From: Candidatus Nomurabacteria bacterium
Lineage (GTDB): Bacteria > Patescibacteriota > Minisyncoccia > Phycocordibacterales > UBA9973
DNA length: 64,000 nucleotides
Direction of reading: 5' to 3'
Assembly: GCA_023267215.1 (NCBI GenBank)
Contig: JAHFNS010000002.1
Location: forward strand, 192,892 to 256,891
In this document: positions 29,037-63,293 of the stretch, piece by piece
Layout: each line of letters begins with the position of its first letter
Numbering within the stretch: position 1 is the first letter of the stretch
The notes under the pieces: model-generated
Databases searched by the model: none
What the model was told of the DNA's origin: nothing
Seen by the model: only the letters and a program-made list of their open reading frames with translations
Program-made: the position numbers and the translations under genes

Positions 29037-29037
29037 A

Positions 29038-30027: not shown

Positions 30028-30067
30028 CTTATCTATTATATATCAGCTAGAACCTAGAAACTAGAAC

Positions 30068-31918: not shown

Positions 31919-31932
31919 ATATTTTTTAGAAT

Positions 31933-32574: not shown

Positions 32575-32576
32575 AA

Positions 32577-32999
32577 TTATTTTTTCAAATCTAGAACGTC
32601 TAGGCTCCAGGCTAAATCTCGTAATTTATTTCCACTTAATCTTTGCCCTCTTACTTCTCCTAAACCCTCCCTAAAAGAGAGGACGTTCCCTCCCTTGGGG
32701 GAAGCGGGAGCTCCGATTTTCATATGTTTTTTCCAGATATAAAGTTTATTTTGAAAAGAAAATTTTACTCCTGCTTCTATCATATTAATAAATGGCTTAC
32801 CATTTGGATGATAGAAAGTTAAGGCTATAGATAATCCAGCTATGGCTAAAATAGGTATTGCTCCTAGCCAAAGACCCAATAATTTATATAAGGTGTAACA
32901 CAATCCTGCTCCTCCCACTAAGTAGACGAATTCCTTAAAAGTGAAAGGACCAAAAATTTTGTCTTCTATCTCCAAAAATTGTGGAACTTTAAACTGCAT
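32577..32999 (-). CDS. VirB3-like small membrane protein
   Basis: 140 aa with two TM helices, immediately upstream of VirB4 as in VirB3/PrgI. Contains an in-frame G-rich hairpin insertion. Confidence 0.5.
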   Translation of the reverse strand: MQFKVPQFLEIEDKIFGPFTFKEFVYLVGGAGLCYTLYKLLGLWLGAIPILAIAGLSIALTFYHPNGKPFINMIEAGVKFSFQNKLYIWKKHMKIGAPASPKGGNVLSFREGLGEVRGQRLSGNKLRDLAWSLDVLDLKK

Positions 33000-33038
33000 A
33001 ATTTAATTATAAATCAGAAACAATCAATTACCTAGTAC

Positions 33039-33661: not shown

Positions 33662-34177
33662 TTAAAACCCTCTTCCGACCTCTCCCTTATCAAGGTGAGG
33701 AGATGTGGTGTCCCCCCTGACAAGGGGGTTATAGGGGGTTGTATTAATCATATCACTTTCTTTTTCATTTCTTTTTTCCATAAAAACAGAATAATCTCCA
33801 CCGGAAACAATAAAATCAAGGGTTTGTTTCCAATCTAATTTTTTATTTTGGATATTTTTTTTAACATTTTCTGTTATAAGTTTATTTAGAGGGTTAAATA
33901 TTTTTTGGAAAGATTCTTTTGCAATGTTTTCTGCTTCCTCTTTAGTAGTTTCAACTTGATTTTCGATATTAATTGCATAAAATTCTGGATCTGTGGACCC
34001 TATTAGAAGCAATAAAGTTTCTAACTGAAAATCATTTAGTTCGTCCTCATCTAAGGAATATTTTTCTGCTATTTCTTCTGTTATTTTGATCCAATCAAAA
34101 GAATTAATGACTTCCTGCATTTCTTTTGGTAATTCCACCATCTCTTCTTTAATTGTTTGTTGTAATTTTTCTGTCAT
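33662..34177 (-). CDS. Acidic hypothetical protein, paralogue of 33039-33653
   Basis: See paralogue alignment. Contains hairpin insertion (GDTTSPHLDKGEVGRGF). Confidence 0.45.
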   Translation of the reverse strand: MTEKLQQTIKEEMVELPKEMQEVINSFDWIKITEEIAEKYSLDEDELNDFQLETLLLLIGSTDPEFYAINIENQVETTKEEAENIAKESFQKIFNPLNKLITENVKKNIQNKKLDWKQTLDFIVSGGDYSVFMEKRNEKESDMINTTPYNPLVRGDTTSPHLDKGEVGRGF

Positions 34178-37100: not shown

Positions 37101-37287
37101 AACCTATTCCTTTTTCTGGAGTAGACAATTCCAGTTTTTCTCCAGTTTTTAATTTTAAATCCAAATTATTTGGATCTGAGGTTATTTGTGCTCTAACTTT
37201 ATTTACTTTCAAACCAGAAGAAAAAGGTGCTATTAAAATAGCTAGCATTATTATTCCCACTATTCCTTTTTTCCAATATTGTTTCAT
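34189..37287 (-). CDS. Large polytopic membrane protein with long coiled-coil and His-rich C-terminus (candidate VirB6/TrbL-like channel component)
   Basis: Signal peptide and ~230-aa exposed domain, then about 8 TM helices, then ~450 aa of charged alpha-helical sequence ending HGGGDSHAKH. Architecture and position match VirB6-like proteins of Gram-positive conjugation systems. No motif-level proof. Confidence 0.45.
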   Translation of the reverse strand: MKQYWKKGIVGIIMLAILIAPFSSGLKVNKVRAQITSDPNNLDLKLKTGEKLELSTPEKGIGYASAIFDIKATNLKLVYDGETSGYKVNTNIIDITAGEKDGGGSYSEGKSFGKDTVSSSSEKTIRICYGGNTTPDGKPCDSYESNTLKENNDYKLKITFDNYYPETGYSVIFNKIITETKNDPSVVYYWTFRTGDKTNNTSGTTTGDVKNYNQATDNDFGCSLIPMKLGGCVLQLFFILWQASAWVARLAGEFLDFFVYYATNSSSYTNTFVEQAWAGVRDIANIFFILALLFIAIKTVLGLNVTDNKKLIGAVVVVALFINFSLFTTKLVIDGSNILAKVFYNNISSVDEKGVNTEKNNVGGQKSISVGLVDKFNPQGVIMATYSDATLGIGYAIFVAILLIAITLYMAYVFFSIALLFVARVVSLWISMIFSPFAFASFTVPFKIPGFGHEEWWDDLSKNAVMAPIFAFLLYIIILFAGFLTDIARYADNQNLSGSANIMQHLMSIIIPFIILMALLNKAKKLTIEYAGEMGKTIVSGVKTIGGIAAGAAIGTTAAIGQGTLGHLGKGIFESKKLADWETNTDKGLGAWGKRFVGKNLRTASGAASTSSFDLRKGVGGVALKAASGLTGLNLGAQSKFLMKESGGYEADLKRRDEKRKKRAEGLKIKEGEPEKQHLNQVQEEHQKVSLENEKEIHEIEKEITAAEGKVKYLKDIAIASKGTPEGEANNDAYLAAGQKVKELKDKRSAIKSGGMLDENGNDGTGEFRTHNGNITKKAWEDANKEAEEAGKILVETGMVKSEAEKANAAAVTEKVAAIDELNAATAARIDAEAKANSKLTIGDPAVVAKTLEDAKKAEENAKNRMSVATNNVDTTLKTLENSNKKLEKAKEKISIAEKANIAKAYADTHKGFGNSQNEYEDKILPEAEHEVKHVNDRRTHGYANNIENQFAWPWNEAARRKSAHEIRMGVKAESHGSSKGSHLVTETVAASLAEKFVGGGKDHSSSHAPAAEKHDSGGKDAHGGGDSHAKH

Positions 37288-37973: not shown

Positions 37974-40283
37974 CTAATTCTTTTTGAAATAATACTCATA
38001 ATCCGAAGCTTCTTTGAACGTTGTTGTCACATTTCTGACGTCAACTATGGTGTTGTCGTAATACTCATACACTTTTAACGTATTCCCCGAAAGTTGAAGT
38101 TGATAAGCAGCAATGTCTGGTTTGCTTACGCGTATTTCTCTGCCGTTTTCATTTACATAACCAAACATTCTAGCGAGTTGGTCTGACAAATACCAAGCGA
38201 AAGATTGCAGATCAGAACCATCTGTATAACCATATTTTTTAGCAAATTCTACATCAGCGACAATTTGTCTAGCAAAAACTGTTTCGATGCCTTCTTGATA
38301 GCGAACAATGGCATCACTTGGTGGAGTAGCTGTCTGTCCTAATTTAAGAGGTGTTGTATCTATTATTTTTTTATTATTGTTATTTCCATTACTTCCGGTT
38401 CCATTGTTATAGTTGCCATTGTTGTAATTCCCATTGTTATAACTATTATTACTTCTCCAATTTGAACTATTCCAAGTGCCAGTATTTGTTCCACCTCCTA
38501 TTCCATTTGTTCCTTTATTACTAGTCCATGTTCCAGAACCTGTCGCGCTCGTCCAAACACCTCCTCCATTTCCTGTTCCAGTCCAAGTAGCGCTTCCTGT
38601 TCCACCTACACCTGAAGTACTTATCCATGTTCCAGAATCTGTTCCACTATTCCAAGTGCCAGTAGTTCCTGTGTTTGTACCAGTATTTGTACCGTCATTA
38701 TTATAATTTGTGTTTTTTATACAAGTAGGTGGATTATTTGCTCCATTCATACAAATCTTTATATTTGTATCACATTTTGGATAATTAGTTGCTCCATTTA
38801 CACAAATGTTATCAGGAATATTATCACAAGCAGGATAATTAGTTGATTTATTTATACAAGTATTGTTGTTATTATTATCACAAGTAGGTGGATTATTTGC
38901 TCCATTCATACAAATCTTTATATTTGTATCACATTTTGGATAATTAGTTGCTCCATTTACACAAATGTTATCAGGAATATTATCACAAGCAGGATAATTA
39001 GTTGCATTATTTTCACAAGTTGTTGTCGGAGGGGTATAAATACAAGTATTAGTAGAAGAATTTAAAACATAGGGAAGTTTACAAACAGGATTTTTTATTT
39101 CGTTGCCTGTTTCACCACTTCCGCTATTAGTACCGCTACTACTAGCGCTTGTTGTAAAATAAAAAATGTCGCCAGTATAAGTTGCTTCGTTTGCTGTACC
39201 CGCATTATTTTTTACCACTGCTCTAAATTGATATGTTGTGTTGGGTGTTAATCCTGTCAAATTGAAATTTATGTTTCCAAAGAGGTTGGCATAATTTCCG
39301 AGAGAGTTTTTTTGTTCACTACTCTTATTGCCATTCTTAGCCACGATCCATGGCGAGGCGAACTCGCTTTTTTTGTAGACAAAATAAGTTGTTACATCTG
39401 TATTAGTGATTGTTTTAGCTAGATTATTTTTTGGAGAACAATATGTTCCATTTAATATGGCAGAAGTTGATTTTATATTTGCTTCCTTTTTTGTTTCCAC
39501 TGTTGTGTTGTAACAATTAGTATGAAAACTTTTAACAATACTACTTCCACCGTAAGCGATATTATCTTTATTTGAAATTATGGCGCAATAATAATAAGTC
39601 GTGTTTGGAGCTAGGCCAGTTATCTCTTGGGAAAAAGATTGTGAAGCTGTCGGACCTAAAAATTTATCTCCTGTTGAAATCATATTTGAACCATAAACAT
39701 CATTACAGAAAATTGGAGGATTATTTTTGTTTGCTTTTGTGTATCTGAAATATGCAGTAATTGGAAGAGTGGGCTTTGAAACTAAATCTCCTCCTGTACC
39801 GTTGAGTGTGGCAGTATTTTGAGTGACATTGAGAGCCTCTCCTGTGTAAACAAAAAGACTTGATTTTGTTGTATTGGCGTTGGCGCTACTACTAGCACTA
39901 TCTTTTATATAACAAGCCTTAGCTACATTTGCATACGGATCTCTAAAAGTATTATTGTTGCAATTTATGCTGTCTGTGATATTGGTTCTATAATAAAATT
40001 TACCATAAACACCATAAGCCACATCTTTTATTCCAGTAAAATTACAAACCTGATTTTCATTTACACAAAATGTATACCCATTTGGCCCACTACTTGTAGT
40101 ATTTCCAGTTCCTCCCCCACCTCCACCAGAACCGGTGTCAGTACAACTTTGTCCGGTTTCAGTACTATATAAACTACCTTGATCACAACCAGCTGGAGCT
40201 AAATTCGCTCGTGAAATAAATGGCAAAATAAAAATTGCTGAAAATAGTGTTAAAATTATTATTTTTGTGATATTTTTTTGCAT
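37974..40283 (-). CDS. Large secreted Cys-patterned surface protein with Asn/Gly/Thr-rich low-complexity region and an internal perfect tandem duplication
   Basis: Signal peptide. Repeated CDNIPDNICVNGATNYPKCDTNIKICMNGANNPPTC module. G/T/N/S-rich tract. 769 aa. Confidence 0.6.
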   Translation of the reverse strand: MQKNITKIIILTLFSAIFILPFISRANLAPAGCDQGSLYSTETGQSCTDTGSGGGGGGTGNTTSSGPNGYTFCVNENQVCNFTGIKDVAYGVYGKFYYRTNITDSINCNNNTFRDPYANVAKACYIKDSASSSANANTTKSSLFVYTGEALNVTQNTATLNGTGGDLVSKPTLPITAYFRYTKANKNNPPIFCNDVYGSNMISTGDKFLGPTASQSFSQEITGLAPNTTYYYCAIISNKDNIAYGGSSIVKSFHTNCYNTTVETKKEANIKSTSAILNGTYCSPKNNLAKTITNTDVTTYFVYKKSEFASPWIVAKNGNKSSEQKNSLGNYANLFGNINFNLTGLTPNTTYQFRAVVKNNAGTANEATYTGDIFYFTTSASSSGTNSGSGETGNEIKNPVCKLPYVLNSSTNTCIYTPPTTTCENNATNYPACDNIPDNICVNGATNYPKCDTNIKICMNGANNPPTCDNNNNNTCINKSTNYPACDNIPDNICVNGATNYPKCDTNIKICMNGANNPPTCIKNTNYNNDGTNTGTNTGTTGTWNSGTDSGTWISTSGVGGTGSATWTGTGNGGGVWTSATGSGTWTSNKGTNGIGGGTNTGTWNSSNWRSNNSYNNGNYNNGNYNNGTGSNGNNNNKKIIDTTPLKLGQTATPPSDAIVRYQEGIETVFARQIVADVEFAKKYGYTDGSDLQSFAWYLSDQLARMFGYVNENGREIRVSKPDIAAYQLQLSGNTLKVYEYYDNTIVDVRNVTTTFKEASDYEYYFKKN
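38721..39004 (-). repeat. Perfect in-frame tandem duplication (two identical 125-bp blocks with a 159-bp period) within the surface-protein gene
   Basis: 38721-38845 is identical to 38880-39004. Encodes the repeated CDNIPDNICVNGATNYPKCDTNIKICMNGANNPPTC. Confidence 0.85.
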
Positions 40284-40321
40284 TTAATTTTTCTTTTATC
40301 TAGTACCTAGCAGCTAATTAC

Positions 40322-43285
40322 TTAATATATTCCAATCGTTTTTTCAAATAGCCCACCATAGTCTTTTGAATTTCCAAGTGGCATATGGGCTGAAGTACTA
40401 GGGGCACTTTGGTCATCGGGTTGATAATTGTAAATCAAACCATCTAGAGGCAATCTTTCAGCTCCGTCATAAATATTGTCAGGACCTGGTGGGTAAACTG
40501 CAGTGTAATGAACAAAACTCAAAAATCCTGGACCATATTTGTCGTACTGATTTTCGGCAGGCATTTTATAGCAACCAGTAGTGTCTTTTTCAGTACATTT
40601 TTTATTATAACCCCATGGATCTGGTAAGGGAGCTCCTTTATCGAAATTATTATAATCATAAAGAATTGGAAAAGGATAAGTCATTCTTGCAACAGAATTA
40701 ACATTGTAATTATTCCAATCTTCTGTTGGTTGTTTTACGCCACTACCAGCTGATGGGAAGTTTTTTTCACTAGTTGAGACATTATCTAAATTTTGTAAAA
40801 ATGCTTCACAGCCATATGGTCCCTTTAAAAGATTATTGTAGATACGATTTTTCTTAGCAATAATTTGTTCTACTAAATCACTAGCACTGGCTATGTCATC
40901 TCCATTCACCATACTTGCAGACAATCTTCCAAATGCATAAATTTGAGTTTTTAACTCATTTTCATAATCATCGTTACTAATCTGATTGGTATCAAGCTGA
41001 TTATTCAAATTATCGACAGCATCTTTTATATCTCCCAAAGTACCTACAATACTTTTCATTGAAATGATTTTATCATTATTGTCTTTAATCATCTGATTGT
41101 AACCAGGTAACTGATCGAAATCATTAGCAGCTTCTTTGGTAATCGAAGGTAGTCTGTCTGGGCTAGAAAAATATGTTTTGTTCATAATGGCAACATATCT
41201 ATTTAATACACTATTCAAAACATAAGATACTCCTTCACTGGTTGTCATATTCACATGTACAGGATCAGTTGATGCATATGCATCATATGGAGCTTGTGGT
41301 CTAAAACCAGTAAATTCATAAAATCTGTCAGTGTAATAACCTCTAATACTTCTAGAAATATCTTTTGCACTAACGTCACCTGTTAATGCTCCAAAGAGAG
41401 AACTTAAGGCTGGTCCAACATAAGGAACAAAATTGAGACCCACACCAACGACACCGTTCACAACTCCAGTTGCTTCATTTGATGAAGTTTTTGCTTGTCC
41501 TATTGAAATGGAATTCAATGTATCCCTAGAATCATTTTCCCAACCTGGGTGTGGTCCTGGTATACAATAATCCAATTGATAAATGGCGGGTATAAGTCCA
41601 TATGCATTAGAGATTTCTTTTCCAGTTCCTGGACCTATACAGTCTGGATATTTTCCACTCCAACCAGTTGGGCAAACAGCTTTTGGATTAAGAGTAGCAT
41701 CAAAAGAAATGCCACGAGTACTTATTTTTATTACTGGCTCACTACCCTTACAATTAGGATATTTTCCACTCCAACCAGTTGGGCAAACTTTAAGGTTGTA
41801 GTCTTTTCCATCTGTCGTAGAGTAGAGTTCTTTATTTTGCAAAGCGAGTTTGTCTGAATATGTTCTCTGTTCATCTATCAATGCTTGAGTAAGGTCGGTG
41901 CGAATATTGAAATCAGGATTAGCTTGTAACCATGAACTTGTAAGTTGTGATGGTGTATAATCTTTTTCTGTTTGAGTTTTGTATGGATCAGTCGTAGCTC
42001 CACTAAAGACCAAAGCGCCATCAATCCCTTGATTTCCGATATTAGCAAAACCTTTTTCAAATATATTAGTAGAGAATTGATTTAGTGTGGCATCTAGCAT
42101 AGCCGCAACAGCATCGTTTAAATCTTCTACGTTTAGAAGAGAATTATTTTGATATTTGGTCACCTCTGTCGCATAGTCAGCTATCATCTTTCCCGGGGTG
42201 ACATATTCCCAGCTTCCTCCTTCTGCTATACAAGGGTCGCCTTGGCTGTTAGTAGCTTCTAGGGCTTTTGTCTTTTGTGTTTGAGTCATACTAGAATCAA
42301 CACTGCAACGATAATCTCCCAAAAATCCATTTGCTGCTTGAATAGCATCTCGAGTATCTTTAGCTGTAGATTGTGATGTTTCATCTAATCTTTTTTGTAT
42401 TTCATTATCAAACATTATTTTAGCGCCAATAGGATTGTTGGCAGGTATTTGAGTCAATGCTGTCCAAGCATCCCAACCACCCATACTAAAATTACTTTGA
42501 AATTTATCAGCAGAAGCTTCTGGATTTGTTTCTTGAATAAGTTTATTTAAAGAATATTGTGCATTTTGCGAGAATTTAGTTTTATAAGCTAAAGCTTGAT
42601 TCCTCAACCAATCTTTGCCAAATGGACTATCTTGTATTTCTATACCAAATTGTAAAATTTCATTTTTCGCTATGTCGTTAAAAAATTTTCCTGGATTTTG
42701 TAAAAAAGAAGGTGAACCATCAAAACCACTATTGATCCATTTAACGGTACTTACCGTTAATTTTTGCAAGAACATTTTTGCGATTAGTCGCCCGACACTT
42801 GCAATGCAACTAGAATCCTCATTTATTTTTTGTGTCGTCTTGTTAAGTTTTTGTTGACCTGAGTCTATTTTTTGAAGCAGTCTATTTGTTTCTGCGGTAC
42901 CTGGATTTGAGACAGATTTGATTGTTCCAGAAGTTACTTTTAAATCTAAATTTGTTGTAGCAGCATCAGCATGGTCTTGTTCAGAATCACTGAGAGATGA
43001 TGTAGCGCTCGTAGAATCCATCCAGTCATTCAAACTACCTTCATCAATTGCACCCCCTGTTTCACCGCTAAATAAACCCGTGATTCCATTAAATAAATTT
43101 TTTATTACACCACCATTATTTTTACATTGTGGTAATCTAGCTATAGCAGGAATGAGTCCGGTTGCATATCCTGAAATATTATATTGCGCCTCAGCTTTTT
43201 TGGAAACGAAAGAAAGAGGCATCAATATTGTGCTTACTATTAGTACGAATGAAATTATTGATTTTTGGATTTGTTTTTTTTGCAT
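40322..43285 (-). CDS. Large secreted surface protein with repeated CPTGWSGKYP(N/D)C modules
   Basis: Signal peptide (LIVSTILMPLSFVSKKAEA). 987 aa. Two copies of the CPTGWSGKYP.C motif. Confidence 0.55.
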   Translation of the reverse strand: MQKKQIQKSIISFVLIVSTILMPLSFVSKKAEAQYNISGYATGLIPAIARLPQCKNNGGVIKNLFNGITGLFSGETGGAIDEGSLNDWMDSTSATSSLSDSEQDHADAATTNLDLKVTSGTIKSVSNPGTAETNRLLQKIDSGQQKLNKTTQKINEDSSCIASVGRLIAKMFLQKLTVSTVKWINSGFDGSPSFLQNPGKFFNDIAKNEILQFGIEIQDSPFGKDWLRNQALAYKTKFSQNAQYSLNKLIQETNPEASADKFQSNFSMGGWDAWTALTQIPANNPIGAKIMFDNEIQKRLDETSQSTAKDTRDAIQAANGFLGDYRCSVDSSMTQTQKTKALEATNSQGDPCIAEGGSWEYVTPGKMIADYATEVTKYQNNSLLNVEDLNDAVAAMLDATLNQFSTNIFEKGFANIGNQGIDGALVFSGATTDPYKTQTEKDYTPSQLTSSWLQANPDFNIRTDLTQALIDEQRTYSDKLALQNKELYSTTDGKDYNLKVCPTGWSGKYPNCKGSEPVIKISTRGISFDATLNPKAVCPTGWSGKYPDCIGPGTGKEISNAYGLIPAIYQLDYCIPGPHPGWENDSRDTLNSISIGQAKTSSNEATGVVNGVVGVGLNFVPYVGPALSSLFGALTGDVSAKDISRSIRGYYTDRFYEFTGFRPQAPYDAYASTDPVHVNMTTSEGVSYVLNSVLNRYVAIMNKTYFSSPDRLPSITKEAANDFDQLPGYNQMIKDNNDKIISMKSIVGTLGDIKDAVDNLNNQLDTNQISNDDYENELKTQIYAFGRLSASMVNGDDIASASDLVEQIIAKKNRIYNNLLKGPYGCEAFLQNLDNVSTSEKNFPSAGSGVKQPTEDWNNYNVNSVARMTYPFPILYDYNNFDKGAPLPDPWGYNKKCTEKDTTGCYKMPAENQYDKYGPGFLSFVHYTAVYPPGPDNIYDGAERLPLDGLIYNYQPDDQSAPSTSAHMPLGNSKDYGGLFEKTIGIY

Positions 43286-43332: not shown

Positions 43333-44277
43333 TCATTGTTTTAACAAAAAAGTCTCTAAATCTGCCACTGCTTTTATCAAATCATCGCTATATTTTTGAT
43401 ATTGAGAAAGTCCAGATAATCCGATAATCGGATCGCTTACAATTTTACCCATATTGAGAATGCTTATGCCAGTGTTGTTGGCACCATTAGCTATTTTCAA
43501 ATGATATAGAGTAAGACTTGGAGGAACATAGAGTTCCATTACTTTTTGAGCGAAAAGTTGATAAGCATTAGCTATTTTTGATAATTTATTAAATTGATCA
43601 ATCCCACTTATCCCCCCATCTTGAGAATTTGTTGCTACTCCATCACTGACAATGCTTAATTCATCTCCTATACCTAAAGATTGATAGCTTTTAAATAAAT
43701 TTTTCATTTCCACATAATATTTTTGTTTTAAGACAAGATTGTCAACACTATTTATTTTTACATCTGTCTCTGTATAGCGATCTACTAAATCAGGAGTTAC
43801 TATTTTTTGCCCCAAGGCATTAGAAAAATTATTGATAGTATTTTTATCAATTTGCCCAGATGATTTCATGGCTGTGTAATTGCTGAAAAACTCGCGAGCA
43901 AACTTTTCTGTTTCTGTTAATTTTGTTTCATTTACACTTCCCTCTATTTTTAACTCTTTTTTCTTATTTTCTATATAAGTTGCATCTGGAGTGTTATTAA
44001 AAGTTACTTTTTTGTGAGGATCTGTACCCCAGAGAGCTTCTTCCCAATCAGGGACGCCGTCACCATCTGTGTCATTTTGTAGTAAATCAGTAAAAGTGGA
44101 ATTTCCTACCACTAGAGCCTTATTATTTTTGTTGCCGTTAATAGAAAAATTTTCTCCTGAAGAAGACATGAAGAAAATTACAAAAATTATTATCACCAAA
44201 ATGATAATGGTACTCGTGATCAATGCAAATTTTTTACTAGGTAAGTATTTTTTATATTTTTCTCTATTAAAATTCAT
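43333..44277 (-). CDS. Membrane-anchored hypothetical protein with thrombospondin-type-3-like calcium-binding motif
   Basis: N-terminal TM. DTDGDGVPDWEE matches the DxDxDGxxDxxE TSP3 Ca-binding loop. Confidence 0.4.
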   Translation of the reverse strand: MNFNREKYKKYLPSKKFALITSTIIILVIIIFVIFFMSSSGENFSINGNKNNKALVVGNSTFTDLLQNDTDGDGVPDWEEALWGTDPHKKVTFNNTPDATYIENKKKELKIEGSVNETKLTETEKFAREFFSNYTAMKSSGQIDKNTINNFSNALGQKIVTPDLVDRYTETDVKINSVDNLVLKQKYYVEMKNLFKSYQSLGIGDELSIVSDGVATNSQDGGISGIDQFNKLSKIANAYQLFAQKVMELYVPPSLTLYHLKIANGANNTGISILNMGKIVSDPIIGLSGLSQYQKYSDDLIKAVADLETFLLKQ

Positions 44278-45178
44278 TTTTATACTTATATTGTATCATT
44301 TTAACAAGCTCAATCCAATCTTTTAGTGTTAATTCCTCCGCTCTTTTGTTTCCTAACCCTGCGGAGGCAATTCCTCCGCCAAAGAGCAGGTCGTATTTTT
44401 TAAGATTTGAAGATAATTTCTTTCTTTTGTGGGCAAAACCAGCATGAATTATTTCCCAAAATAGTTTTTCATCTAGTATTTTACCCTCTCCTTTATAAGG
44501 AGAGGGATTTAAGGGTGAGGTGAAATTCTTTCTAGAAATATTTTTTATTGTAATTATAGCTGAATCTACTTTTGGGGCTGGAGAAAAATATCGAGCAGGT
44601 ACTTTTAGAATCATTTTTGGCTCACCGTATGCTTTCACGGAAATAGAAAGGATACTTTCCTTCGCCCTGCGAAGCTTTAGCGAAGCAGGGTTATTGTTTA
44701 CACAAATTCTCTTCGCCACTTCATTTTGCACCATCAATACCATCGAGATTGGTTGATTTATATCTCCCAAAAATTTTTTCAAAATTGCACCAGTGATATT
44801 GTAAGGAATATTTGCAATTATTTTGTATTTTTCTCCCCCCTCGAAGGGGGAGATTAAGAGGGGGTCTAAATCTAAAATATCACCATGTACTAGTACAAGA
44901 TTGCCCAACTTAATTTGATTAGCAAATTTTTCTTGAAGTAGCTCGTAAAGCGCTCTATCTTTTTCTATAGCTATAACACACCCGGTTTTTTCCCTGTCCG
45001 ACTCTTTGTGCGAAGCACTAATGGCGAATAAAAGTTTTTCTGTCAGCACCCCTTTTCCCGGACCTATTTCTAAAATAATATCATCTTTAGAAATTTCTCC
45101 AGCTTCAACTATTTTATTGAGGGCTGGTATAGATTTTAGAAAATTTTGTCCTAATGATTTTTTTGCTTTGTGTATCAT
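44267..45178 (-). CDS. rsmA: 16S rRNA adenine dimethyltransferase RsmA/KsgA, with two in-frame hairpin insertions
   Basis: SLGQNFL start. SAM motif LEIGPGKGVLTEKL. Catalytic NIPYNI. Insertions encode SPLNPSPYKGEGKIL and DLDPLLISPFEGGEKYKI. Confidence 0.9.
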   Translation of the reverse strand: MIHKAKKSLGQNFLKSIPALNKIVEAGEISKDDIILEIGPGKGVLTEKLLFAISASHKESDREKTGCVIAIEKDRALYELLQEKFANQIKLGNLVLVHGDILDLDPLLISPFEGGEKYKIIANIPYNITGAILKKFLGDINQPISMVLMVQNEVAKRICVNNNPASLKLRRAKESILSISVKAYGEPKMILKVPARYFSPAPKVDSAIITIKNISRKNFTSPLNPSPYKGEGKILDEKLFWEIIHAGFAHKRKKLSSNLKKYDLLFGGGIASAGLGNKRAEELTLKDWIELVKMIQYKYKNEF

Positions 45179-45181
45179 ATA

Positions 45182-47323
45182 TTATAAATAAATAGTTTTT
45201 ATTCCATTTTTCTCTTCTTCTTTTTCTAATAAATCATTCGGAATATCTCCAAGAAATTCTGACGGTGCATTTATTTGTTTTGAACCAAAGATGGTGCGGA
45301 AATTAGCAAATGATAAAAATAATTTTTCACGAGCTCGTGTGAGTGCAACATAAAAAAGTCTGCGTTCTTCTTCTTGGTCTTCAGCACTTTTTCTTTCACC
45401 ATCTTTTCGATGAGGGAAAAGTCCATCTTCAAGTCCAGTAATGAAAACATATTTAAATTCAAGTCCCTTGGATGCATGCACTGTCATAAGTTTCACTCCC
45501 CTTTTTTCTTCTTTTTTATCTACATTATTTATCAGACTATCTTGGTCTGAAGCTAAAGAAGCATCTTCTAAAAGTTTCTCAATTCCCATTCCACCCTTTA
45601 AATTATCATATTTTAGAGCTAAAGTTGCCAATTCTTTTATATTTTCTAGTCTTTCCATTTCTTCTTCTCCTCCAGCTAAAAGTTCTGTTTCTATACCTGA
45701 TTTTTTGATTGTAAATTTAATTACGTCTGATGCTTTTTCTATTTCTATTTTTTCTTTTATATCTTTTAAAATTTTGTAAAAATTATCAATTTTTATTTTT
45801 ACTTTTATCGGCAGACTTTCTTCTTCTCCGGCTTGCCCCGCCATGGCGGTGGCGAAAATTTTTGCAAGCGTCACCTTTCCTATTCCCCTAGCTGGAAAAT
45901 TTATAATTCTTTTAATATCAGAAAGACTTTGAGGATTGAGTGCTGCACGAAGATATGCAAGAGTATCTTTGATTTCTTTTCTTTCGAAAAATTTTACACC
46001 TAAAACTTGATATGGGATGTTGTATCTTAGCATTGCTTCTTCTAGCGCTCGTGATTGAAAATTTGCACGATATAAAATTGCTATTTTAGACAAAGTTGCG
46101 GATACTACTTTTGTAGGGTCGCTGTCTCCGCTTACTAGCGGAGCGCTGCCTCTCGGCTCGTCAGCCTGCGAGACACCCTCCAAAAGCACATTCGCAACTT
46201 TGTCTTGCAACTCTATAATTTTTGTCGCGACAAAATCTGCTTCATCGTTCTCATCGAGTGCTTCATAAAAACCTATTTTTTCTCCTATTTTATTTTTGGT
46301 AAATAAATTTTTATCAGGCCTATATTTATTTTTCTTTATTATTTCATTAGCTGCTTCCAGAATATTTTGAGTAGATCGATAATTTTCTTCTAATAAAATT
46401 ATTTTTGTATCTTTACCATAATCTTTCTCAAAGCTCAAAATATTTTTTAAATTTGCTCCACGCCAAGAATAAATATTTTGATCTGCGTCTCCGACTACAC
46501 AAATATTTTTATTATTTTCAGAAAGTAGTTTTGACATCAAATATTGCACTTCGTTCGTGTCTTGATACTCGTCTATATGAATATAATCCCATTTTTCTTG
46601 ATAAATTTTTCTTATTTCTTTATTATCTTGCAGTAATTTTGTCGCTTTCAAAAGTAAATCATCAAAATCTAATGAATTTTCTTTCATTTTTTTCTTTTCA
46701 TACAGACTCCAAACTTGAGAAACTATTTTTGTTAAAAAATTCGCCCCAGGTTCGTTAGATATTTCTTCATAATCAGCGAGATGAGTAAATTTCCCTTTTT
46801 CTCTACTAATAATGTTCCCTATTTTTCGTGGTTCATATTGTTTTGGGTCTAGATTCAATTCTTTTAATGATTCTTTAATAAGAGAAGTAGAATCTGCTTC
46901 ATCTAAAATAGTGAAATGCCTTGTTAGTCCTAAAATTCTAGCGTTTTCTTTTATTATATATACTCCCAAAGAGTGAAAAGTGGAAACAAAGGGCCTGCTA
47001 ATAATTTCGCCGGTAATGCTTTTTGTCATGGTCTGGCCGGGATAGGGACCCGGAGATCCGAGGACCTGAGAAAAAGCATTACCGGCGAAATTTATTTTTA
47101 TTGCTGAAGTGATCCTTTCCTGCATTTCTTTGGCTGCTTTGTTTGTAAAAGTCACAGCTAAAATTTTCTCTGGAGCTACTCCATTTTTTATTAAATTTAG
47201 TATTCTATGGGTTATGGTCTTGGTTTTTCCTGCTCCAGCCCCTGCCACGATCAAAAGCGGTCCATTCATGTGAATAGCCGCCTCTCGTTGTTTAGGGTTT
47301 AATTCTTTTAAATGTTCGTCCAT
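45182..47323 (-). CDS. UvrD/PcrA/Rep-family ATP-dependent DNA helicase with in-frame insertions
   Basis: Motif I LLIVAGAGAGKTKTITHRI, motif Ia AVTFTNKAAKEM, TFHS, DEYQDTN. Confidence 0.9.
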   Translation of the reverse strand: MDEHLKELNPKQREAAIHMNGPLLIVAGAGAGKTKTITHRILNLIKNGVAPEKILAVTFTNKAAKEMQERITSAIKINFAGNAFSQVLGSPGPYPGQTMTKSITGEIISRPFVSTFHSLGVYIIKENARILGLTRHFTILDEADSTSLIKESLKELNLDPKQYEPRKIGNIISREKGKFTHLADYEEISNEPGANFLTKIVSQVWSLYEKKKMKENSLDFDDLLLKATKLLQDNKEIRKIYQEKWDYIHIDEYQDTNEVQYLMSKLLSENNKNICVVGDADQNIYSWRGANLKNILSFEKDYGKDTKIILLEENYRSTQNILEAANEIIKKNKYRPDKNLFTKNKIGEKIGFYEALDENDEADFVATKIIELQDKVANVLLEGVSQADEPRGSAPLVSGDSDPTKVVSATLSKIAILYRANFQSRALEEAMLRYNIPYQVLGVKFFERKEIKDTLAYLRAALNPQSLSDIKRIINFPARGIGKVTLAKIFATAMAGQAGEEESLPIKVKIKIDNFYKILKDIKEKIEIEKASDVIKFTIKKSGIETELLAGGEEEMERLENIKELATLALKYDNLKGGMGIEKLLEDASLASDQDSLINNVDKKEEKRGVKLMTVHASKGLEFKYVFITGLEDGLFPHRKDGERKSAEDQEEERRLFYVALTRAREKLFLSFANFRTIFGSKQINAPSEFLGDIPNDLLEKEEEKNGIKTIYL
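47004..47092. repeat. Family-2 element: core TGGTCTGGCCGGGATAGGGACCCGGAGATCCGAGGACC flanked by 26-bp copy-specific inverted repeat, in-frame in uvrD
   Basis: Core shared with 55886-55923 (cca, 37/38 identical) and a diverged copy at 9252-9291 (polA). Arms AATTTCGCCGGTAATGCTTTTTGTCA / TGAGAAAAAGCATTACCGGCGAAATT. Confidence 0.8.
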
Positions 47324-48479: not shown

Positions 48480-51029
48480 TTAATTCTGTGAGTTAGTTAT
48501 TGTATCCAACGCATTTTTAAATGCTTGGGTATCAGGAGTAAGTTTTGGTTGGAGCTCAAGTATCTTGCTTAAAAGATTTATTTGTTCTGGATTTAGTTTG
48601 GATATATTACCAACAATATCTTTTGTATTTTCAAGATCTAGTAAAGCACTATGCACTTTGTCGGTAGTGGTGCCTAAGACAGTGGCATAATCTGGAATGT
48701 TTCCACTTAATTCAGTTAAATTTTCATGCACGAGTCCATGTAAACTTTGATTCATGTTTTCTTGTGCTAAAGATAAAGTGTTCTCACTCATATCAGGTGT
48801 GTTATCTAAAGCAGAGATGTATCTTTGTGATGTTGGGCTTGCATGTTCATACTCGTAAGGACTGTTTAAGCCTCCAGTGCCAGATGGTTTGCCATCAAAA
48901 TATTCGTGTATAGTTATTTTTCCATTTGCATCTATATCAATTGGATATGCAGGATTCCCTTTTAGTCCAGGTTCACCCATATCTTTTACCCATGTTTCAG
49001 TTCCTCCACCTTTATAATTATTGTCTATAGCAATTAAATCAGCTTTTGTGCCAGACCATTTATGAATTGCCAACTTGTCATTAATGTCTCCATTAAATCC
49101 AAATTTAGCGGGATGTGCTTCGAGTTGGTCTCGGACCACACCTTCAATCCCACGTTTTCCTACCGTTGCCATTTTTAAAGTTTCTTCATCAAACATAGAA
49201 CCACCTGTCTTCGGAGTGACTATAACTTCAGGCAAAACATGTTCTCCTTTTAAGTCTGGAGATTCTCCTGGTGTAACATTTCCTTTTGGATGATTATCTG
49301 GTATAGTTTCTTTTATTGCCCCTCCACCATGATGTGGTAAGATACCAAGCACTTGAGGTCCTGCAACCCAATCTGTTAGTACAGAAGCTCCCATTCCACC
49401 AAGAACACCAGGGATAAGAGTACCAATAATAAAATTATTTCTTTTAAATAATTTTTTATTTTTATCTATTCTATCTTTGTATTTGTCGCATAGTTTAATA
49501 TTTTCTTCAAAAATTTTCTCAAGGGTTTCTGCTCTTTTTTCAGAGTTTTCTTTATCTTTGGCAAGTTGTTCAAGGTTTGACATTTCTGCTGACTTAACTG
49601 CTTCTCCTTGTTGATCTTGTGTCGTAAGTTTTTCATCATGACCATAAGAGCCTCTAACCATAGGTTGAAAAATCTTTTTTGATAAACCAAAACCAAATGT
49701 TCCCCCGACTAGGCCTTTAACTGTCTTATAGGCTAAAAACGAGGTAACTCCGAGACCTGCTGCTATTGCAGAAGGCCACAAAATTGCTGTGCCTCCCCCT
49801 ACTATTGCAGCATTTAGTGCTGTTCTTGTGAATCTTCCCATTTTCGCATAACCTTGAAATGCTTTGCTTTCTACTCCTCTTTTGAAAAAATTCTTTATTT
49901 TATCCCAAGCTTTAGGATTTATTGCACTATTTGTGGCAACTTGTGCATCTTGATATCTTAATTTTTCTGTTTGCAATATAGAAAGATTGAATAATCTAGC
50001 ATTTTGTACTTTTTTGTTATAGTCCGCATCATTTTCATATTTTTCTAAATTTTTTAATTGATTATCTATATTTGAAACTCCAAGTTCCTTAAGCAATGGA
50101 TTGTAATCATTATCTATAAGTAATATTTTATCTTTTATATCTTGAATTTGTTGTTTGTATTTTGCTGAAACAATGGAGGAGTCTGCATATGGATCATTTT
50201 CAGCAGTTTTATGTTCTTTTTCAATTCTTTTTAGTTCATCTTTTAAGTTGGATAGTTGATTTCTTTTTCCAGATACTTTTACAGCAGCCTCTATTTCCCT
50301 TTCAGAATGTTCAGCTTTTAGTTTTTTTAGAGCTTCTTCTTCAGCCACTTTTGCCCCTTCAGGATTTTTGTAATATCCAGCGCGATTAAATTTACAGAAA
50401 ATTTCTGCTGCATTTAAAAGCTCTTCACGAGAATATTTTTCTTTACCTTCTTTGTTTTCGTTTTTACCAGCAATATTCTGTTCTATGGGAGTAGTAGGTT
50501 CTGTTTCGTTTTTTCTTTTGGCCAGAAGATTTTTTATATTTTCTATTTGATCTTTATCATATCCTCCTTTTTCCAGTTCTTTTTTTAATTTTTCATCTTC
50601 TTCATCAAGTTCGGCTAGTCTTTTATTTCTCTTTTCAATTTCATCTTTGATTTTATTAATTTCGGCTTCGGTAGATTCTTTTGTTTCTTTCTTTTCTGTT
50701 TTATTTCCTTTATCCCATGCTATTTTCCCTTCCATTGCAAGCTCACTCGCTGTTTTTAGTTTAGTATTTGGTGAATTTTTTAATTCACTTTCAAGTCTGA
50801 TAATTTCTTTCTCAATAGATTCTTTGTCCCCGACGTAATTAGTGCTTTTTAAAGATTTTTTTAGTTCAGATATTTCTTGGCGGATTTCTTCTGCTGTTTT
50901 TCTTGGTACATATCCTCCTTCCTCTTCGCCAAGAGGTTTTTTGCCATACATATCTATTCCTTCTTTCTTGTCGCTTTCTTTTACATCAGTATGACTTGAA
51001 ATAATTTCTATTTCTTTTGGTTTTTCCAT
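48480..51029 (-). CDS. Large hypothetical protein: N-terminal K/E-rich coiled coils, central Gly-rich hydrophobic segments, C-terminal globular domain
   Basis: ORF only. Composition and hydrophobicity. Confidence 0.4.
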   Translation of the reverse strand: MEKPKEIEIISSHTDVKESDKKEGIDMYGKKPLGEEEGGYVPRKTAEEIRQEISELKKSLKSTNYVGDKESIEKEIIRLESELKNSPNTKLKTASELAMEGKIAWDKGNKTEKKETKESTEAEINKIKDEIEKRNKRLAELDEEDEKLKKELEKGGYDKDQIENIKNLLAKRKNETEPTTPIEQNIAGKNENKEGKEKYSREELLNAAEIFCKFNRAGYYKNPEGAKVAEEEALKKLKAEHSEREIEAAVKVSGKRNQLSNLKDELKRIEKEHKTAENDPYADSSIVSAKYKQQIQDIKDKILLIDNDYNPLLKELGVSNIDNQLKNLEKYENDADYNKKVQNARLFNLSILQTEKLRYQDAQVATNSAINPKAWDKIKNFFKRGVESKAFQGYAKMGRFTRTALNAAIVGGGTAILWPSAIAAGLGVTSFLAYKTVKGLVGGTFGFGLSKKIFQPMVRGSYGHDEKLTTQDQQGEAVKSAEMSNLEQLAKDKENSEKRAETLEKIFEENIKLCDKYKDRIDKNKKLFKRNNFIIGTLIPGVLGGMGASVLTDWVAGPQVLGILPHHGGGAIKETIPDNHPKGNVTPGESPDLKGEHVLPEVIVTPKTGGSMFDEETLKMATVGKRGIEGVVRDQLEAHPAKFGFNGDINDKLAIHKWSGTKADLIAIDNNYKGGGTETWVKDMGEPGLKGNPAYPIDIDANGKITIHEYFDGKPSGTGGLNSPYEYEHASPTSQRYISALDNTPDMSENTLSLAQENMNQSLHGLVHENLTELSGNIPDYATVLGTTTDKVHSALLDLENTKDIVGNISKLNPEQINLLSKILELQPKLTPDTQAFKNALDTITNSQN

Positions 51030-54904: not shown

Positions 54905-56575
54905 ATGGCCTCTATAGAAACAAAAAACTTAATATCTAAAATTCCCAAGGAAGTTTCACATGTAACAGAGACCTTAGAAAAGGCCGGTTTTGAGGCATAT
55001 TTAGTCGGTGGTTGTGTACGAGACCTAGTGATAGGTAGGGAACCAAAAGATTGGGATGTGACAACTAACGCCAGACCAGATCAAATAATCAGTTTATTTG
55101 AGAAAACTGTATATGAAAACAATTTTGGGACGGTTATAGTGGTTCTCCCCCTGCTAAGGGGGAGTGGTTCGGTAAACCGAACCGAGGGGGTGGTTTCACG
55201 AGAAACAGACTCCTCCTCAATTCTCCCCTTTGCAGGGGAGGAAAATATACTAATAGAAGTTACACCATATAGAACAGAGGCAAAATATACTGATTTTAGG
55301 CATCCAGACGAGGTTTTGTTTAGCGATAATTTAGAAGATGATCTTAAAAGACGTGATTTTACAGTAAATGCAATGGCCTATAGAAATGGAAGCATAACGG
55401 ACATGTTTGATGGTCTAAAGGACATCAAAGAAAAAGTGTTAAAGACAGTAGGGGAAGCAGATCATAGATTTACAGAAGATGCTCTTAGAATGCTTAGAGC
55501 TATAAGAATAGCTTTACAACTTGATTTTTCTGTTTCTCATGAAACAACTGAAAGCATCATAAAGAATGCAGATTTAATAAAAAAAATATCACCAGAAAGA
55601 ATTCGAGATGAATTTGTAAAAATAATTTTATCCCCAAATCCATCTGTCGGAATAGTGATGTTGGAAAAATTTGGTTTATTAAAAAATATTGTTCCTGAAT
55701 TGGAAGAGGGAATAAATTGCGAACAAGGAGGGGAGCATATTTATGATGTTTGGAATCATTTACTTCATGCATTACAGCATGCTGCAGACAAAAACTGGCC
55801 TTTGGAAATAAGGCTTGCTGCGCTTTTTCATGATATTGGGAAACCCCGAGCTCGTAGGTTGGCAGAGTTGACGAATAATTTAGCATGGTCTGGCCGGGAT
55901 AGGGACCCGGGGATCCGAGGACCTGATAAATTATTTGGCAACCCTGCCAACAAGAAGAAATATACTTTTTATGGTCATGAAGTTGTGAGTGCAAAAATGA
56001 CAAAAAAAATAATGGAGAAGTTAAAATTTTCAAGAAAAGAAATTGATTTGACCGAAAAACTTGTTCGTAACCATATGTTTTTTTCCGACACAGAACAGAT
56101 TACACTTTCTGCTGTCAGGAGAATAATTACGAAAGTTGGTGCTGAAGATGTGTGGTCTCTAATGAATGTGCGTGAATGTGACAGAGTCGGGATGAAGAAA
56201 AAAGAAGCACCATATCGTTTACGAAAATATTTTGCCATGATAGAAGAAGCATTGCATGATCCTATCTCTGTTGGACAACTCAAAATAGATGGGGAATTTA
56301 TGATAAAAGAGCTCTGTATTGCACCAGGTCCTCGTATGGGATGGATATTGAATGCACTTCTTGAAGAAGTGTTAGATGACCCAGCAAAAAATACAGAAAA
56401 ACATTTGAGTGAACTCGTTAAATCTTTAAATATGCTCGGTGACGCAGAATTAAAAACATTGGGGGATAGGGGAAAAGAAAAAAAAGAAGAACTTGAAGAA
56501 AAGGAAGTAGAAAAACTGCATTCTAAGCATGCTGTGTCCTTCGAAGTGAAGCGAAGTAGGAGGGTGAAAAAATAA
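54905..56575 (+). CDS. cca: CCA-adding enzyme / tRNA nucleotidyltransferase with HD domain, carrying in-frame hairpin insertions and a K/E-rich C-terminal extension
   Basis: Pol-beta nucleotidyltransferase motif GGCVRDLVIGREPKDWDVTT. HD motif HDIGK. Insertions encode LPLLRGSGSVNRTEGVVSRETDSSSILPFAGEE and AWSGRDRDPGIRGPDKL. Confidence 0.85.
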   Translation: MASIETKNLISKIPKEVSHVTETLEKAGFEAYLVGGCVRDLVIGREPKDWDVTTNARPDQIISLFEKTVYENNFGTVIVVLPLLRGSGSVNRTEGVVSRETDSSSILPFAGEENILIEVTPYRTEAKYTDFRHPDEVLFSDNLEDDLKRRDFTVNAMAYRNGSITDMFDGLKDIKEKVLKTVGEADHRFTEDALRMLRAIRIALQLDFSVSHETTESIIKNADLIKKISPERIRDEFVKIILSPNPSVGIVMLEKFGLLKNIVPELEEGINCEQGGEHIYDVWNHLLHALQHAADKNWPLEIRLAALFHDIGKPRARRLAELTNNLAWSGRDRDPGIRGPDKLFGNPANKKKYTFYGHEVVSAKMTKKIMEKLKFSRKEIDLTEKLVRNHMFFSDTEQITLSAVRRIITKVGAEDVWSLMNVRECDRVGMKKKEAPYRLRKYFAMIEEALHDPISVGQLKIDGEFMIKELCIAPGPRMGWILNALLEEVLDDPAKNTEKHLSELVKSLNMLGDAELKTLGDRGKEKKEELEEKEVEKLHSKHAVSFEVKRSRRVKK

Positions 56576-56678
56576 AAATACAAAAATAGATACTTTTTCA
56601 CGGCTCGCACTCGAACCTGAAAATGGTTTACGAAACTAATATTGCGTATGCCAAAAAAAGTATCTATTTTTGTATTTT
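56573..56678. repeat. Conserved-core hairpin element, copy 3
   Basis: ~25-bp arms AAAAATACAAAAATAGATACTTTTT / AAAAAGTATCTATTTTTGTATTTTT enclose core tcACGGCTCGCACTCGAACCTGAAAATGGTTTACGAAACTAATATTGCGTATGCCa. Sits directly after the cca stop. Confidence 0.7.
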
Positions 56679-56679
56679 T

Positions 56680-63157: not shown

Positions 63158-63204
63158 ACAATAATTATATCATGTCGCACAATATATTTCGTTTTTGAGA
63201 AAAT

Positions 63205-63293
63205 ACAAATAGTGTTTTTTACAACTCGCATATCAACCTGGAAACAATATACGAACTTTTAAGTAGCGTATGTTGCAAAAAACACTATTTGCA
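63205..63293. repeat. Conserved-core hairpin element, copy 4 (diverged core) in the xerD/rpsO divergent intergenic region
   Basis: Perfect 15-bp arms CAAATAGTGTTTTTT / AAAAAACACTATTTG enclose core acAACTCGCATATCAACCTGGAAACAATATACGAACTTTTAAGTAGCGTATGTTGc. Confidence 0.6.

Follow-up and report, generated by a model that had tools for sequence, protein, structure and literature searches.

Rickettsia palindromic element-like hairpin repeats with conserved cores and site-specific stems in conserved genes of Patescibacteria

Introduction

Rickettsia palindromic elements (RPEs), reportedly described by Ogata and colleagues in 2000, are said to be short palindromic repeats that lie in frame within protein genes of Rickettsia. 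Here, we have analyzed a comparable element, the family-2 hairpin, which is found in the genes uvrD, cca, and polA within a 64,000-nucleotide stretch of DNA from a Candidatus Nomurabacteria bacterium (assembly GCA_023267215.1, contig JAHFNS010000002.1, positions 192,892 to 256,891; this whole 64-kb stretch is called the window, and coordinates without further label refer to it). Family 2 behaves closest to the RPEs but fails their whole-length conservation. Like them, it is a short palindromic repeat of a reduced AT-rich genome, is located in frame in conserved genes, occurs beside other families, is read through as an extra peptide loop, and encodes no transposase. However, RPEs are 100-150 bp long and conserved throughout, whereas family 2 is conserved over its central ~60 nt only and its outer stem is site-specific, at some sites copied from the flank; furthermore, the host phylum is a different one and sequence similarity is absent. 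The Rickettsia elements are mentioned in PMC1779305, and no description of hairpin elements of this kind in Patescibacteria was found in the searchable literature.

Other known systems resemble family 2 in part. MITEs (miniature inverted-repeat transposable elements), too, are small, non-autonomous, multi-copy, hairpin-forming, and sometimes intragenic. They possess conserved terminal inverted repeats, a variable interior, a direct target-site duplication of fixed length, and a related insertion sequence (IS), whereas family 2 shows the reverse arrangement: the hairpin ends are its least conserved part, in agreement with a first-pass annotation of the window which had called its logic opposite to that of MITEs. 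Moreover, no clear target-site duplication was found at family-2 copies, and no IS was seen in the window. The GC clusters and double-hairpin elements of fungal mitochondria are GC-rich hairpin modules spreading in AT-rich genomes. They occasionally enter coding sequence, and in some PstI palindromes of Neurospora a conserved core bears extensions that vary; unlike family 2, they are organellar and mostly intergenic, and we know of no demonstration of flank-derived stems for them. Quasi-palindromes are reportedly subject to correction, a process associated with the names of Ripley and Lovett. Hairpins generated by template switching show one-step reverse-complement copies, multi-base compensatory changes, and invertible loops or hairpins, as does family 2 (PMC8794818; PMC5453318); however, these events are described as sporadic mutations in rRNA and other genomes which are not tied to a multi-copy core and have not been reported to add arms of 15-25 nt beside a mobile insert. 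Finally, repetitive extragenic palindromes (REPs) and REPINs with their REP-associated tyrosine transposases (RAYTs, of the Y1 HUH type), as well as palindromic elements derived from IS200/IS605, share with family 2 the GC-rich imperfect hairpins with conserved mismatches, the strand specificity as single-stranded DNA, and the concerted evolution within genomes (PMC3116915, PMC2817692). REPs are extragenic, comprise about 20-40 nt with a conserved stem that has GTAG at its 5' side, and are accompanied by a RAYT gene, whereas 68% of the family-2 copies are intragenic, their stems are variable, and the window contains no Y1 gene.

We favor, with about even confidence, the reading that family 2 is an RPE-like, non-autonomous, and selfish hairpin repeat which is translated through, whose stems would be built or kept by template switching and whose cores would be homogenised. 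Its unusual features are flank-derived stems, hyper-conserved cores, and a strand-specific structure; the phenomenon as such is robust and widespread. The stems, which first seemed the most exotic feature, can be explained by a known mutational process.

Results

The core TGGTCTGGCCGGGATAGGGACCCGGAGATCCGAGGACC was located at 47029-47066 in uvrD, a copy with one mismatch at 55886-55923 in cca, and a diverged 40-nt variant at 9252-9291 in polA, as annotated before; 0 core matches are expected by chance (100 shuffles of the window). Beyond the window, family 2 was searched by an exact-pattern scan of one representative genome per species. Besides the window copies, at least 116 loci were detected; among these listed matches, all derived from metagenome-assembled genomes (MAGs) of Patescibacteria except four GC-rich chance matches, and 2.9 M viral contigs contained zero copies. 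Family 2 belongs to Paceibacteria-type Patescibacteria, and the UvrD and CCA proteins of the window have their closest relatives in Nomurabacteria/Paceibacterota MAGs (70-83% identity). A covariance model was built from 117 copies and applied to the window. Exactly three matches were obtained with 82.5, 80.6, and 74.1 bits, all on the + strand, and the next-best match reached 13 bits; the score was ~82 bits on the (+) strand as compared to 13 on the (-) strand. Rfam 15 at the gathering threshold revealed only tRNAs in the window and no family matching the element, and permissive thresholds gave only sub-threshold noise in the element region.

Alignment of 116 copies revealed that the conserved unit exceeds 38 nt and reads ...TTTTT-N-GAA / core / TGA-N-AAAAA.... 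It consists of a GC core of 38-41 nt, extended to either side by about 4-12 nt, and lies in a full hairpin of usually ~94 nt. Arm position 1, next to the core, is an A-T pair; positions 2-3 hold a conserved non-complementary tandem A.G/G.A mismatch, and positions 5-9 a T-run on the left and an A-run on the right. The arms had been described as differing in every copy; instead, their innermost 9-12 nt are conserved. From about position 10-12 outward they are site-specific and nearly information-free (about 0.05-0.5 bits at positions 10-27, differing among sites), yet 55-90% complementary. Complementarity drops to background around position 28-30, and the modal arm length is 27-29 nt, small bulges allowed, as compared to 12 nt in a control in which distal arms were exchanged between copies. 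Clustering of 118 copies gave at least 58 distinct arm types; contrary to the earlier statement, arms are not unique to every copy, the polA type recurring at two further loci.

The core forms an apical stem of 5 bp (CCGGG/CCCGG) with the 7-nt loop ATAGGGA and a lower stem GGTC/GACC including an invariant T.G pair on the (+) strand. The automatic RNAalifold consensus mis-paired the apex and was dropped; a hand-drawn structure replaced it and was then tested. In the specified structure, 90.1% of the cells were paired, as compared to 76.3% in shuffles. The search pattern left a single core pair unconstrained, that at columns 24-44; it shows clean covariation, with 65 copies having CG, 51 UA, and one UG. 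The longest direct repeat flanking a copy averages 2.3 nt versus 1.5 nt in the control, with no fixed length of ≥4 nt at the family-2 copies.

In uvrD/pcrA (45182-47323, - strand, 713 aa), the hairpin occupies 47003-47092 on the + strand (90 nt, 82.5 bits) and folds with -35.7 kcal/mol (z = -10.5). It is translated on the - strand as NFAGNAFSQVLGSPGPYPGQTMTKSITGEI; a predicted read-through peptide of family 2 is QVLGSPGPYPGQT. The core with its apical and lower stems is bordered by the proximal left arm at 47018-47028 (GCTTTTTGTCA), containing the T-run (family consensus CTTTTT-N-GAA), and the proximal right arm at 47067-47077 (TGAGAAAAAGC), whose A-run agrees with the consensus. The complete arms (47003-47028 / 47067-47092) comprise 26 nt with 96% complementarity, exactly as claimed. 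In cca, encoding the CCA-adding enzyme (54905-56575, + strand, 556 aa), the hairpin is located at 55858-55951 on the + strand and translated as (RLAE)LTNNLAWSGRDRDPGIRGPDKLFGNPAN. Its arms, previously given as 18 nt, are real and extend to 28 nt at 86% complementarity (55858-55885 / 55924-55951); the outermost left part at 55858-55867 (GTTGGCAGAG) consists of native RLAE codons kept in all orthologues, its complement being found at 55942-55951 (CCCTGCCAAC). In polA (7773-10238, - strand, 821 aa), the hairpin lies in the inter-domain linker at 9223-9321 on the + strand, and the arms, likewise real, comprise about 29 nt with one 1-nt bulge and not 11 nt. Comparison of the complete window hairpins with shuffled sequences gave z values from -5.8 to -10.5.

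The origin of the arms was analyzed by comparison of filled and empty orthologues (L and P numbers denote loci and proteins of the survey). For uvrD, the filled alleles of the window and L119 were compared to the empty L120 (protein P0063), which is sister of the window's filled clade in a rough neighbor-joining (NJ) tree. L120 reads ...ERIDLA TKDITGEIISKPFVSTFHS and has the same length as other empty alleles, whereas the window allele reads ...ERITSA IKINFAGNAFSQVLGSPGPYPGQTM TKSITGEIISRPFVSTFHS. The net gain is 75 nt although the hairpin comprises at least 90 nt. The distal left arm (47003-47017, + strand) contains, on the reverse strand, the codons for ITGEI. They are native: L120 has ATA ACT GGA GAA ATT without possessing the core or the other arm, and this stretch aligns to PcrA from residue 79 onward. 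The distal right arm (47078-47092, + strand), which encodes NFAGN, is absent from L120 and PcrA and is an inserted reverse complement of the ITGEI codons. For uvrD, the annotated combination of a native arm and its inverted duplicate was supported. The proximal left arm may also be partly native, with ACAAAAG present in L120 at the corresponding place.

Further host proteins we take from conserved motifs to be IscS-, MnmA-, and RecJ-like proteins and UvrB (RecJ being assigned by its DHH motif). At site B of the IscS-like protein, the empty L010 reads RKQKEKQKGF|PFFHTD, and L018 contains 63 additional nt, namely TGAA, the core, and 21 nt copied in inverted form from the native flank, which is K-rich. 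L050 resembles L018 but carries the core in opposite orientation, and in L048 the insertion point is shifted by 5-6 nt. At site A, L010 exceeds L050 by 66 nt (TTCTCA, core, and a 19-nt inverted copy), and MnmA (L040 versus L069) follows the same pattern with a weaker native match. In cca, the window allele exceeds the empty L121 by net 78 nt for a hairpin of 94 nt, and the pattern of one native arm is limited to the outer 10-16 nt. The net insertion is about one arm short of the hairpin at uvrD, MnmA, and both IscS-like sites. In these alignments, uvrD and site B of the IscS-like protein clearly combine a native arm with an inverted copy of it that was inserted; for IscS-like site A and MnmA the same assignment is weaker. 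In the clear cases the native flank ends T-rich at the junction (...aaaggttt^, ...tcttttgta^, ...atttttgttt^); hence, the conserved T-run may partly be a target preference and the A-run its copy. Apparent one-arm-native cases in KsgA were dropped because the empty comparator has a small hairpin of its own, and for polA no empty allele was found among the orthologues compared, each having an element in the linker.

The arm type of the polA copies (window and L037) recurs over the full ~28 nt, with the same TGCT bulge, at L009 and L055, two intergenic loci of one other MAG with unrelated flanks. Therefore, whole hairpins, arms included, can be copied, and both routes exist: local creation of arms and copying of complete hairpins. 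Among 38 within-genome pairs, shared arms were found for the L009/L055 pair only. By a hand estimate, a few pairs are expected to be similar by chance at a 70% threshold; other shared-arm pairs were not accepted, the polA/L009/L055 type being retained because of its shared bulge and full-length similarity.

Orthologous uvrD arms differ by compensatory codon pairs (GCC/GGC, GTT/AAC, GTC/GAC, and GGT/ACC to GGG/CCC), and L009 and L055 by a compensatory A/T versus T/A swap. Such clustered paired changes are the expected one-step result of templated strand-switch correction. The earlier idea that cores nucleate template-switch growth of palindromes gains from these multi-base swaps, which it predicts, but some arms travel with the core. 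The cca hairpins of the window and L117 are mutual reverse complements, arm-asymmetric positions included, which indicates an in-place flip or a re-insertion.

Conservation was compared within orthologous uvrD copies. The core showed an identity of 0.96 and the two arms 0.83 and 0.72, whereas the flanking helicase motifs of the same set reached 0.88 at codon positions 1+2 and 0.53 at third positions. Core identity was slightly but significantly higher within genomes (0.883) than between genomes (0.855; permutation p = 0.012). A genome-specific GATCC variant is common to the uvrD and cca cores of the window; the PFRK01 MAG carries an unusual TTCGG(A/G)GAC core type in both of its uvrD copies, and orthologous sites in other genomes contain other core subtypes between the same arms. 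Since cores are hyper-conserved and more alike within genomes, these data point to overwriting or conversion of cores from other copies, to direct selection at the nucleotide level, or to both. Turnover is frequent: uvrD site 1 underwent at least 21 presence/absence changes among 120 orthologues (rough NJ tree). Decayed copies were detected in L030 (ksgA), L109 (uvrD site 1), and protein P0028. In L030 the apical hairpin is replaced by AAAAAA and in L109 by AGGCAAAG, arms and core edges being intact in both; thus, cores are lost by internal deletion while arms persist.

Mismatched arm positions revealed the strand on which the hairpin matters. On the element (+) strand, non-Watson-Crick positions were G.T in 69 and A.C in 13 cases (p = 2e-10); after collapse to 58 arm clusters the ratios were 20:0 in the proximal and 18:6 in the distal part. 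Sorting of the same mismatches by host mRNA sense gave no bias (24 versus 38). Furthermore, for each of the three window copies, folding of the (+) strand was favored over that of the (-) strand by 3-5.5 kcal/mol. Because the G.T bias follows the element strand, the hairpin that is made or selected is that of the (+) strand (TGGTCTGG...), independent of host transcription, as single-stranded DNA or an element-specific RNA. A hairpin function at the level of the mRNA was rejected for the same reason, G.U tolerance following the element and not the sense strand.

Intact open reading frames (ORFs) read through all three window copies, and 82 of 120 copies (68%) reside inside ORFs of ≥150 aa that run through the element. 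With respect to the core (+) strand, 58 genic copies are antisense and 24 sense; the 58 show the orientation with fewer stop codons, and stop-codon avoidance accounts for the preference. Five of the six frames are occupied, the unused one being that in which the left TGA is read as stop. Net inserts relative to empty orthologues are multiples of three (57-90 nt). On the grounds of stop-free frames and insert lengths, family-2 elements are translated and not removed. UvrD residues 75-102 have no counterpart in the PcrA structures 1qhh/1pjr. Copies persist in genes only if in frame, stop-free, and located in a fold-tolerant loop. A few loops were struck again and again, not only by family 2, which occurs there in either orientation, but also by other hairpin families: UvrD sites 1 and 2, the polA linker, one loop each in UvrA and KsgA, a cca loop between RRLAE and KKKYTFYGHE, and two loops in the IscS-like protein, in addition to loops of the putative MnmA, RecJ, and UvrB. 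The count of 68:42 for orientation relative to replication only restates the antisense preference, because local GC skew follows gene orientation.

Discussion

According to our favored reading, the repeat would persist in genes where protein loops tolerate it and be translated as an extra peptide. The outer stem would be created locally, at several sites from native flank ending in a T-run; the second arm would be a reverse-complement copy of this flank, added together with the core when, in the course of DNA synthesis, the nascent strand folds back at the hairpin or switches template there. This process would also maintain complementarity via multi-base compensatory swaps and could invert the hairpin where it stands. 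Complete hairpins with their arms would also be copied to new loci, and cores would be homogenised by overwriting or conversion among copies or held by nucleotide-level selection. We conjecture that copy-choice driven by microhomology, with a nascent T-run pairing to the A-run of a donor, would suit the junctions. Published work documents template switching as a source of reverse-complement copies and as a way in which hairpins are maintained (PMC8794818, PMC5453318); for family 2, we infer template switching, core conversion, and the absence of a dedicated enzyme. The first-pass annotation had put forward an unusual mobilisation mechanism, which remains an inference; a known process, template switching during replication, can account for the stems. 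The transposase suspected there, of Y1/HUH or another type, had no counterpart in the window: Pfam revealed no HUH/Y1, DDE, or reverse transcriptase (RT) domain in window ORFs of ≥100 aa, and the sole recombinase seen, an Xer-like tyrosine recombinase, we take to be housekeeping.

Several points weigh against this reading. All sequences compared are MAG-derived, and no insertion event was caught with high flank identity. Empty alleles could be secondary losses, and some of them bear a coreless 9-11-bp hairpin. In the tally of one-sided cases, the native side relative to the core is split 5 versus 5 sites; hence, a fixed polarity of native and duplicated arm was rejected, and without constant polarity flips or two-way events are needed. 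Extreme core conservation could signal a host function instead of selfish spread. The pattern expected from the earlier proposal, an inverse duplication of the target flank upon insertion, holds clearly at uvrD and at site B of the IscS-like protein, less so at its site A and in MnmA, and for the outer part of the cca arms; at other sites the orthologues showed both arms to be new. In the UvrA loop, L013, L023, L053, and L097 exceed the empty window allele by net 87-90 nt, and both arms are also new in UvrB, in the KsgA allele of L035, and in the cca alleles of L071 and L083, because the net insertion about equals the whole hairpin. Some arms are imported rather than locally made, since the polA type recurs at L009 and L055, and the sharp mode of arm length suits a defined mobile unit equally well as local growth.

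These last points are those expected if the complete ~94-nt hairpin transposes in the manner of MITEs or RPEs, with many arm sub-lineages and with native arms being coincidental or later rearrangements. Net insertions of 84-90 nt with two new arms at UvrA, KsgA (L035), and cca (L071, L083), the recurrence of the polA arms with their TGCT bulge at two unrelated intergenic loci of one MAG, and the 27-29-nt arms all agree with such a unit. Nevertheless, we consider it rather doubtful. The uvrD arm is unmistakable native coding sequence (TKDITGEIISKPF in L120), the arm at IscS-like site B is the native RKQKEKQKGF of L010, and at both sites the net insertion is short by one arm. Moreover, one pair in 38 shares its arms, the number of arm clusters is high, and neither a clear target-site duplication nor conserved terminal repeats were found at the hairpin base.

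A more specific mechanism, which we regard as possible but tentative to the same degree, takes the GC core as a mobile module that would enter just 3' of a T-run; the same event would duplicate, inversely and not directly, 15-25 nt of the flanking target through snap-back synthesis along the (+) strand of the core, which would thus make its stem out of whichever gene it enters, and a dedicated hairpin-recognising enzyme or conversion would keep the cores nearly identical. If true, insertion would proceed without a classical transposase, terminal repeats, or target-site duplication.

Somewhat less probable is the reverse order of events, in which short palindromes in tolerant loops come first, arising by template switching or left over from old elements, and mobile cores then enter or replace the loop, the arms pre-dating the core. 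This would explain the coreless 9-11-bp hairpins found exactly at the KsgA hot spot (L085 99-125; L117 12438-12461), the nesting of family 2 within a hairpin loop of a different family, as in cca of L117 and its relatives, the identical uvrD arms holding different core subtypes or families across genomes, and the repeated use of the same few loops. However, the empty alleles of uvrD (L120), cca (L121), and the IscS-like protein (L010) contain no palindrome at the site, and the conserved T-run/A-run beside the core is not accounted for by this model alone.

Equally unlikely, in our view, is a core that serves the host as a cis-element in single-stranded DNA or RNA, for example bound by a protein of replication, repair, DNA uptake, or the nucleoid, with the stem needed only to present it. 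Core identity in uvrD remains at 0.96 where flanking synonymous sites are near saturation; the tandem G.A and the invariant T.G pair are conserved non-Watson-Crick features, G.T tolerance is strand-specific and independent of host transcription, and many hosts are genome-maintenance genes (uvrA, uvrB, uvrD, polA, putative RecJ). Against this stand the frequent loss, internal deletion, and replacement of copies (uvrD site 1, L109, L030), the existence of several unrelated core families with the same architecture and hot spots, and the lack of a required position in any given gene.

Removal or skipping of the hairpin at the RNA level, as a mini-intron, by RNase III-type excision and religation, or by translational bypass, is suggested by the long perfect stem around a structured core inside essential genes but is highly improbable and was rejected, because the unconstrained frames and stops expected from it are contradicted by all 82 genic copies, which keep the host frame open and stop-free, avoid the TGA-stop frame, and prefer the fewer-stop orientation 58 versus 24, because insert lengths in multiples of three are a signature of selection on translated sequence, because the structural strand asymmetry follows the element and not the mRNA, and because no Rfam family matches.

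If our favored reading is true, translated selfish hairpins are scattered over the smallest bacterial genomes known and lie within the most conserved enzymes encoded there, namely UvrA, UvrB, UvrD, PolA, the CCA-adding enzyme, KsgA, and putative IscS-, MnmA-, and RecJ-like proteins. Such elements would explain much of the length variation among Patescibacteria orthologues and affect gene calling, orthologue alignment, phylogenomics, and structure prediction in this group. They would also provide a natural system in which the theory that hairpins originate by template switching could be tested at dozens of independent sites, with stems, as this theory predicts, visibly made from neighboring sequence and then kept paired by multi-base swaps. 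Cores conserved above the surrounding essential codons, together with a single-strand structure, would point to conversion or drive, or to a hairpin-binding factor.

Other hairpin families and genomic context

Apparently, a whole collection of hairpin families of this kind is present in the genome. Family 1 is represented by intergenic copies at 24869-24970 and 56574-56679 with a common 56-nt core, CACGGCTCGCACTCGAACCTGA.AATGGTTTAC.AAACTAATATTGCGTATGCC.A, showing 3 differences. Its arms of 23-25 nt are perfect and wholly different between the two copies, and both copies are bracketed by an outer A-run/T-run like a bidirectional terminator. A core related to family 1 is located at 63198-63299.

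A second, unrelated GC-core hairpin resides in uvrD at 46086-46213. It encodes the peptide VANVLLEGVSQADEPRGSAPLVSGDSDPTKVVSATLS and has a core of 68 nt between outer arms that match perfectly over 12 nt (GACAAAGTTGCG/CGCAACTTTGTC); its family (…GVSQADGPRGSAPRARGDSDP…) occupies uvrD site 1 in other orthologues. In the polA linker, the segment 9180-9222 beside the family-2 copy (GGAGAAAGCAAAGTTTTGTCGGCCTC) encodes …EADKTLLSPIS…. It looks like the leftover single arm of another linker element that is complete in L102, L049, and L065 (…EKTLLSPIS), which suggests element turnover at a hot spot. In the window this linker contains 48 nt that are absent from L037.

In ksgA/rsmA (ORF 44267-45178, - strand), a GC-rich palindromic island at 44835-44864 (CCCCCCTCGAAGGGGGAGATTAAGAGGGGG) encodes PLLISPFEGG. 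It marks the exact KsgA loop filled by family 2 in L021, L035, L046, L082, and L100. The empty KsgA alleles L085 (99-125), L117 (12438-12461), and L118 (9331-9354) contain the coreless hairpin of 9-11 bp with a 5-nt loop, TGCGTTAGG-CAAGA-CCTAACGCA, which is either a palindromic precursor or represents arms that remained once a core was lost.

In cca of L117 (1-1262), family 2 is nested within the loop of another hairpin (…SGDALRRSNIIL[AGLSNNLSGPRISGSLSQPDYAKLF]ASPAS…); nested copies are also present in proteins P0125, P0146, P0159, P0160, and P0162. A 9-nt direct repeat, TTGGCGGAG…TTGGCTGGA, surrounds the remnant of the outer element in L117. Compared to L117, the window cca contains two extra segments at ~55150-55290, LPLLRGSGSVNRTEG and DSSSILPFAGEEN, around VSRET, which may be further element-derived inserts.

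The window has a GC content of 33%, and more GC-rich islands were found at 587-620, 2922-2951, 4863-4968, 5269-5330, 32677-32718, 33699-33728, 45819-45859, and 60725-60767. They lie in or beside ORFs including uvrC, uvrA, and uvrB, and several of them are flanked by inverted repeats; the island at 4863-4968 has 22-nt GC-rich arms (GAATCTGCCCGGGATAGTACTC).

The replication origin is probably located near 24.1-24.3 kb, because dnaN (21338-22435, -), dnaA (22684-24054, -), rnpA (24330-24656, +), and yidC (24997-25755, +) are arranged around it. GC skew shows no switch at dnaA (22.7-24.1 kb); the local skew tracks gene orientation, and between 26 and 51 kb nearly every gene is on the - strand. This region includes large ORFs without Pfam match at 34189-37287, 37974-43285, and 48480-51029. 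A type IV secretion/pilus-like cluster at 27705-33000 encodes a type IV secretion system pilin, an NlpC/P60 protein, a TraG/VirB4-like ATPase, and a PrgI-like protein.

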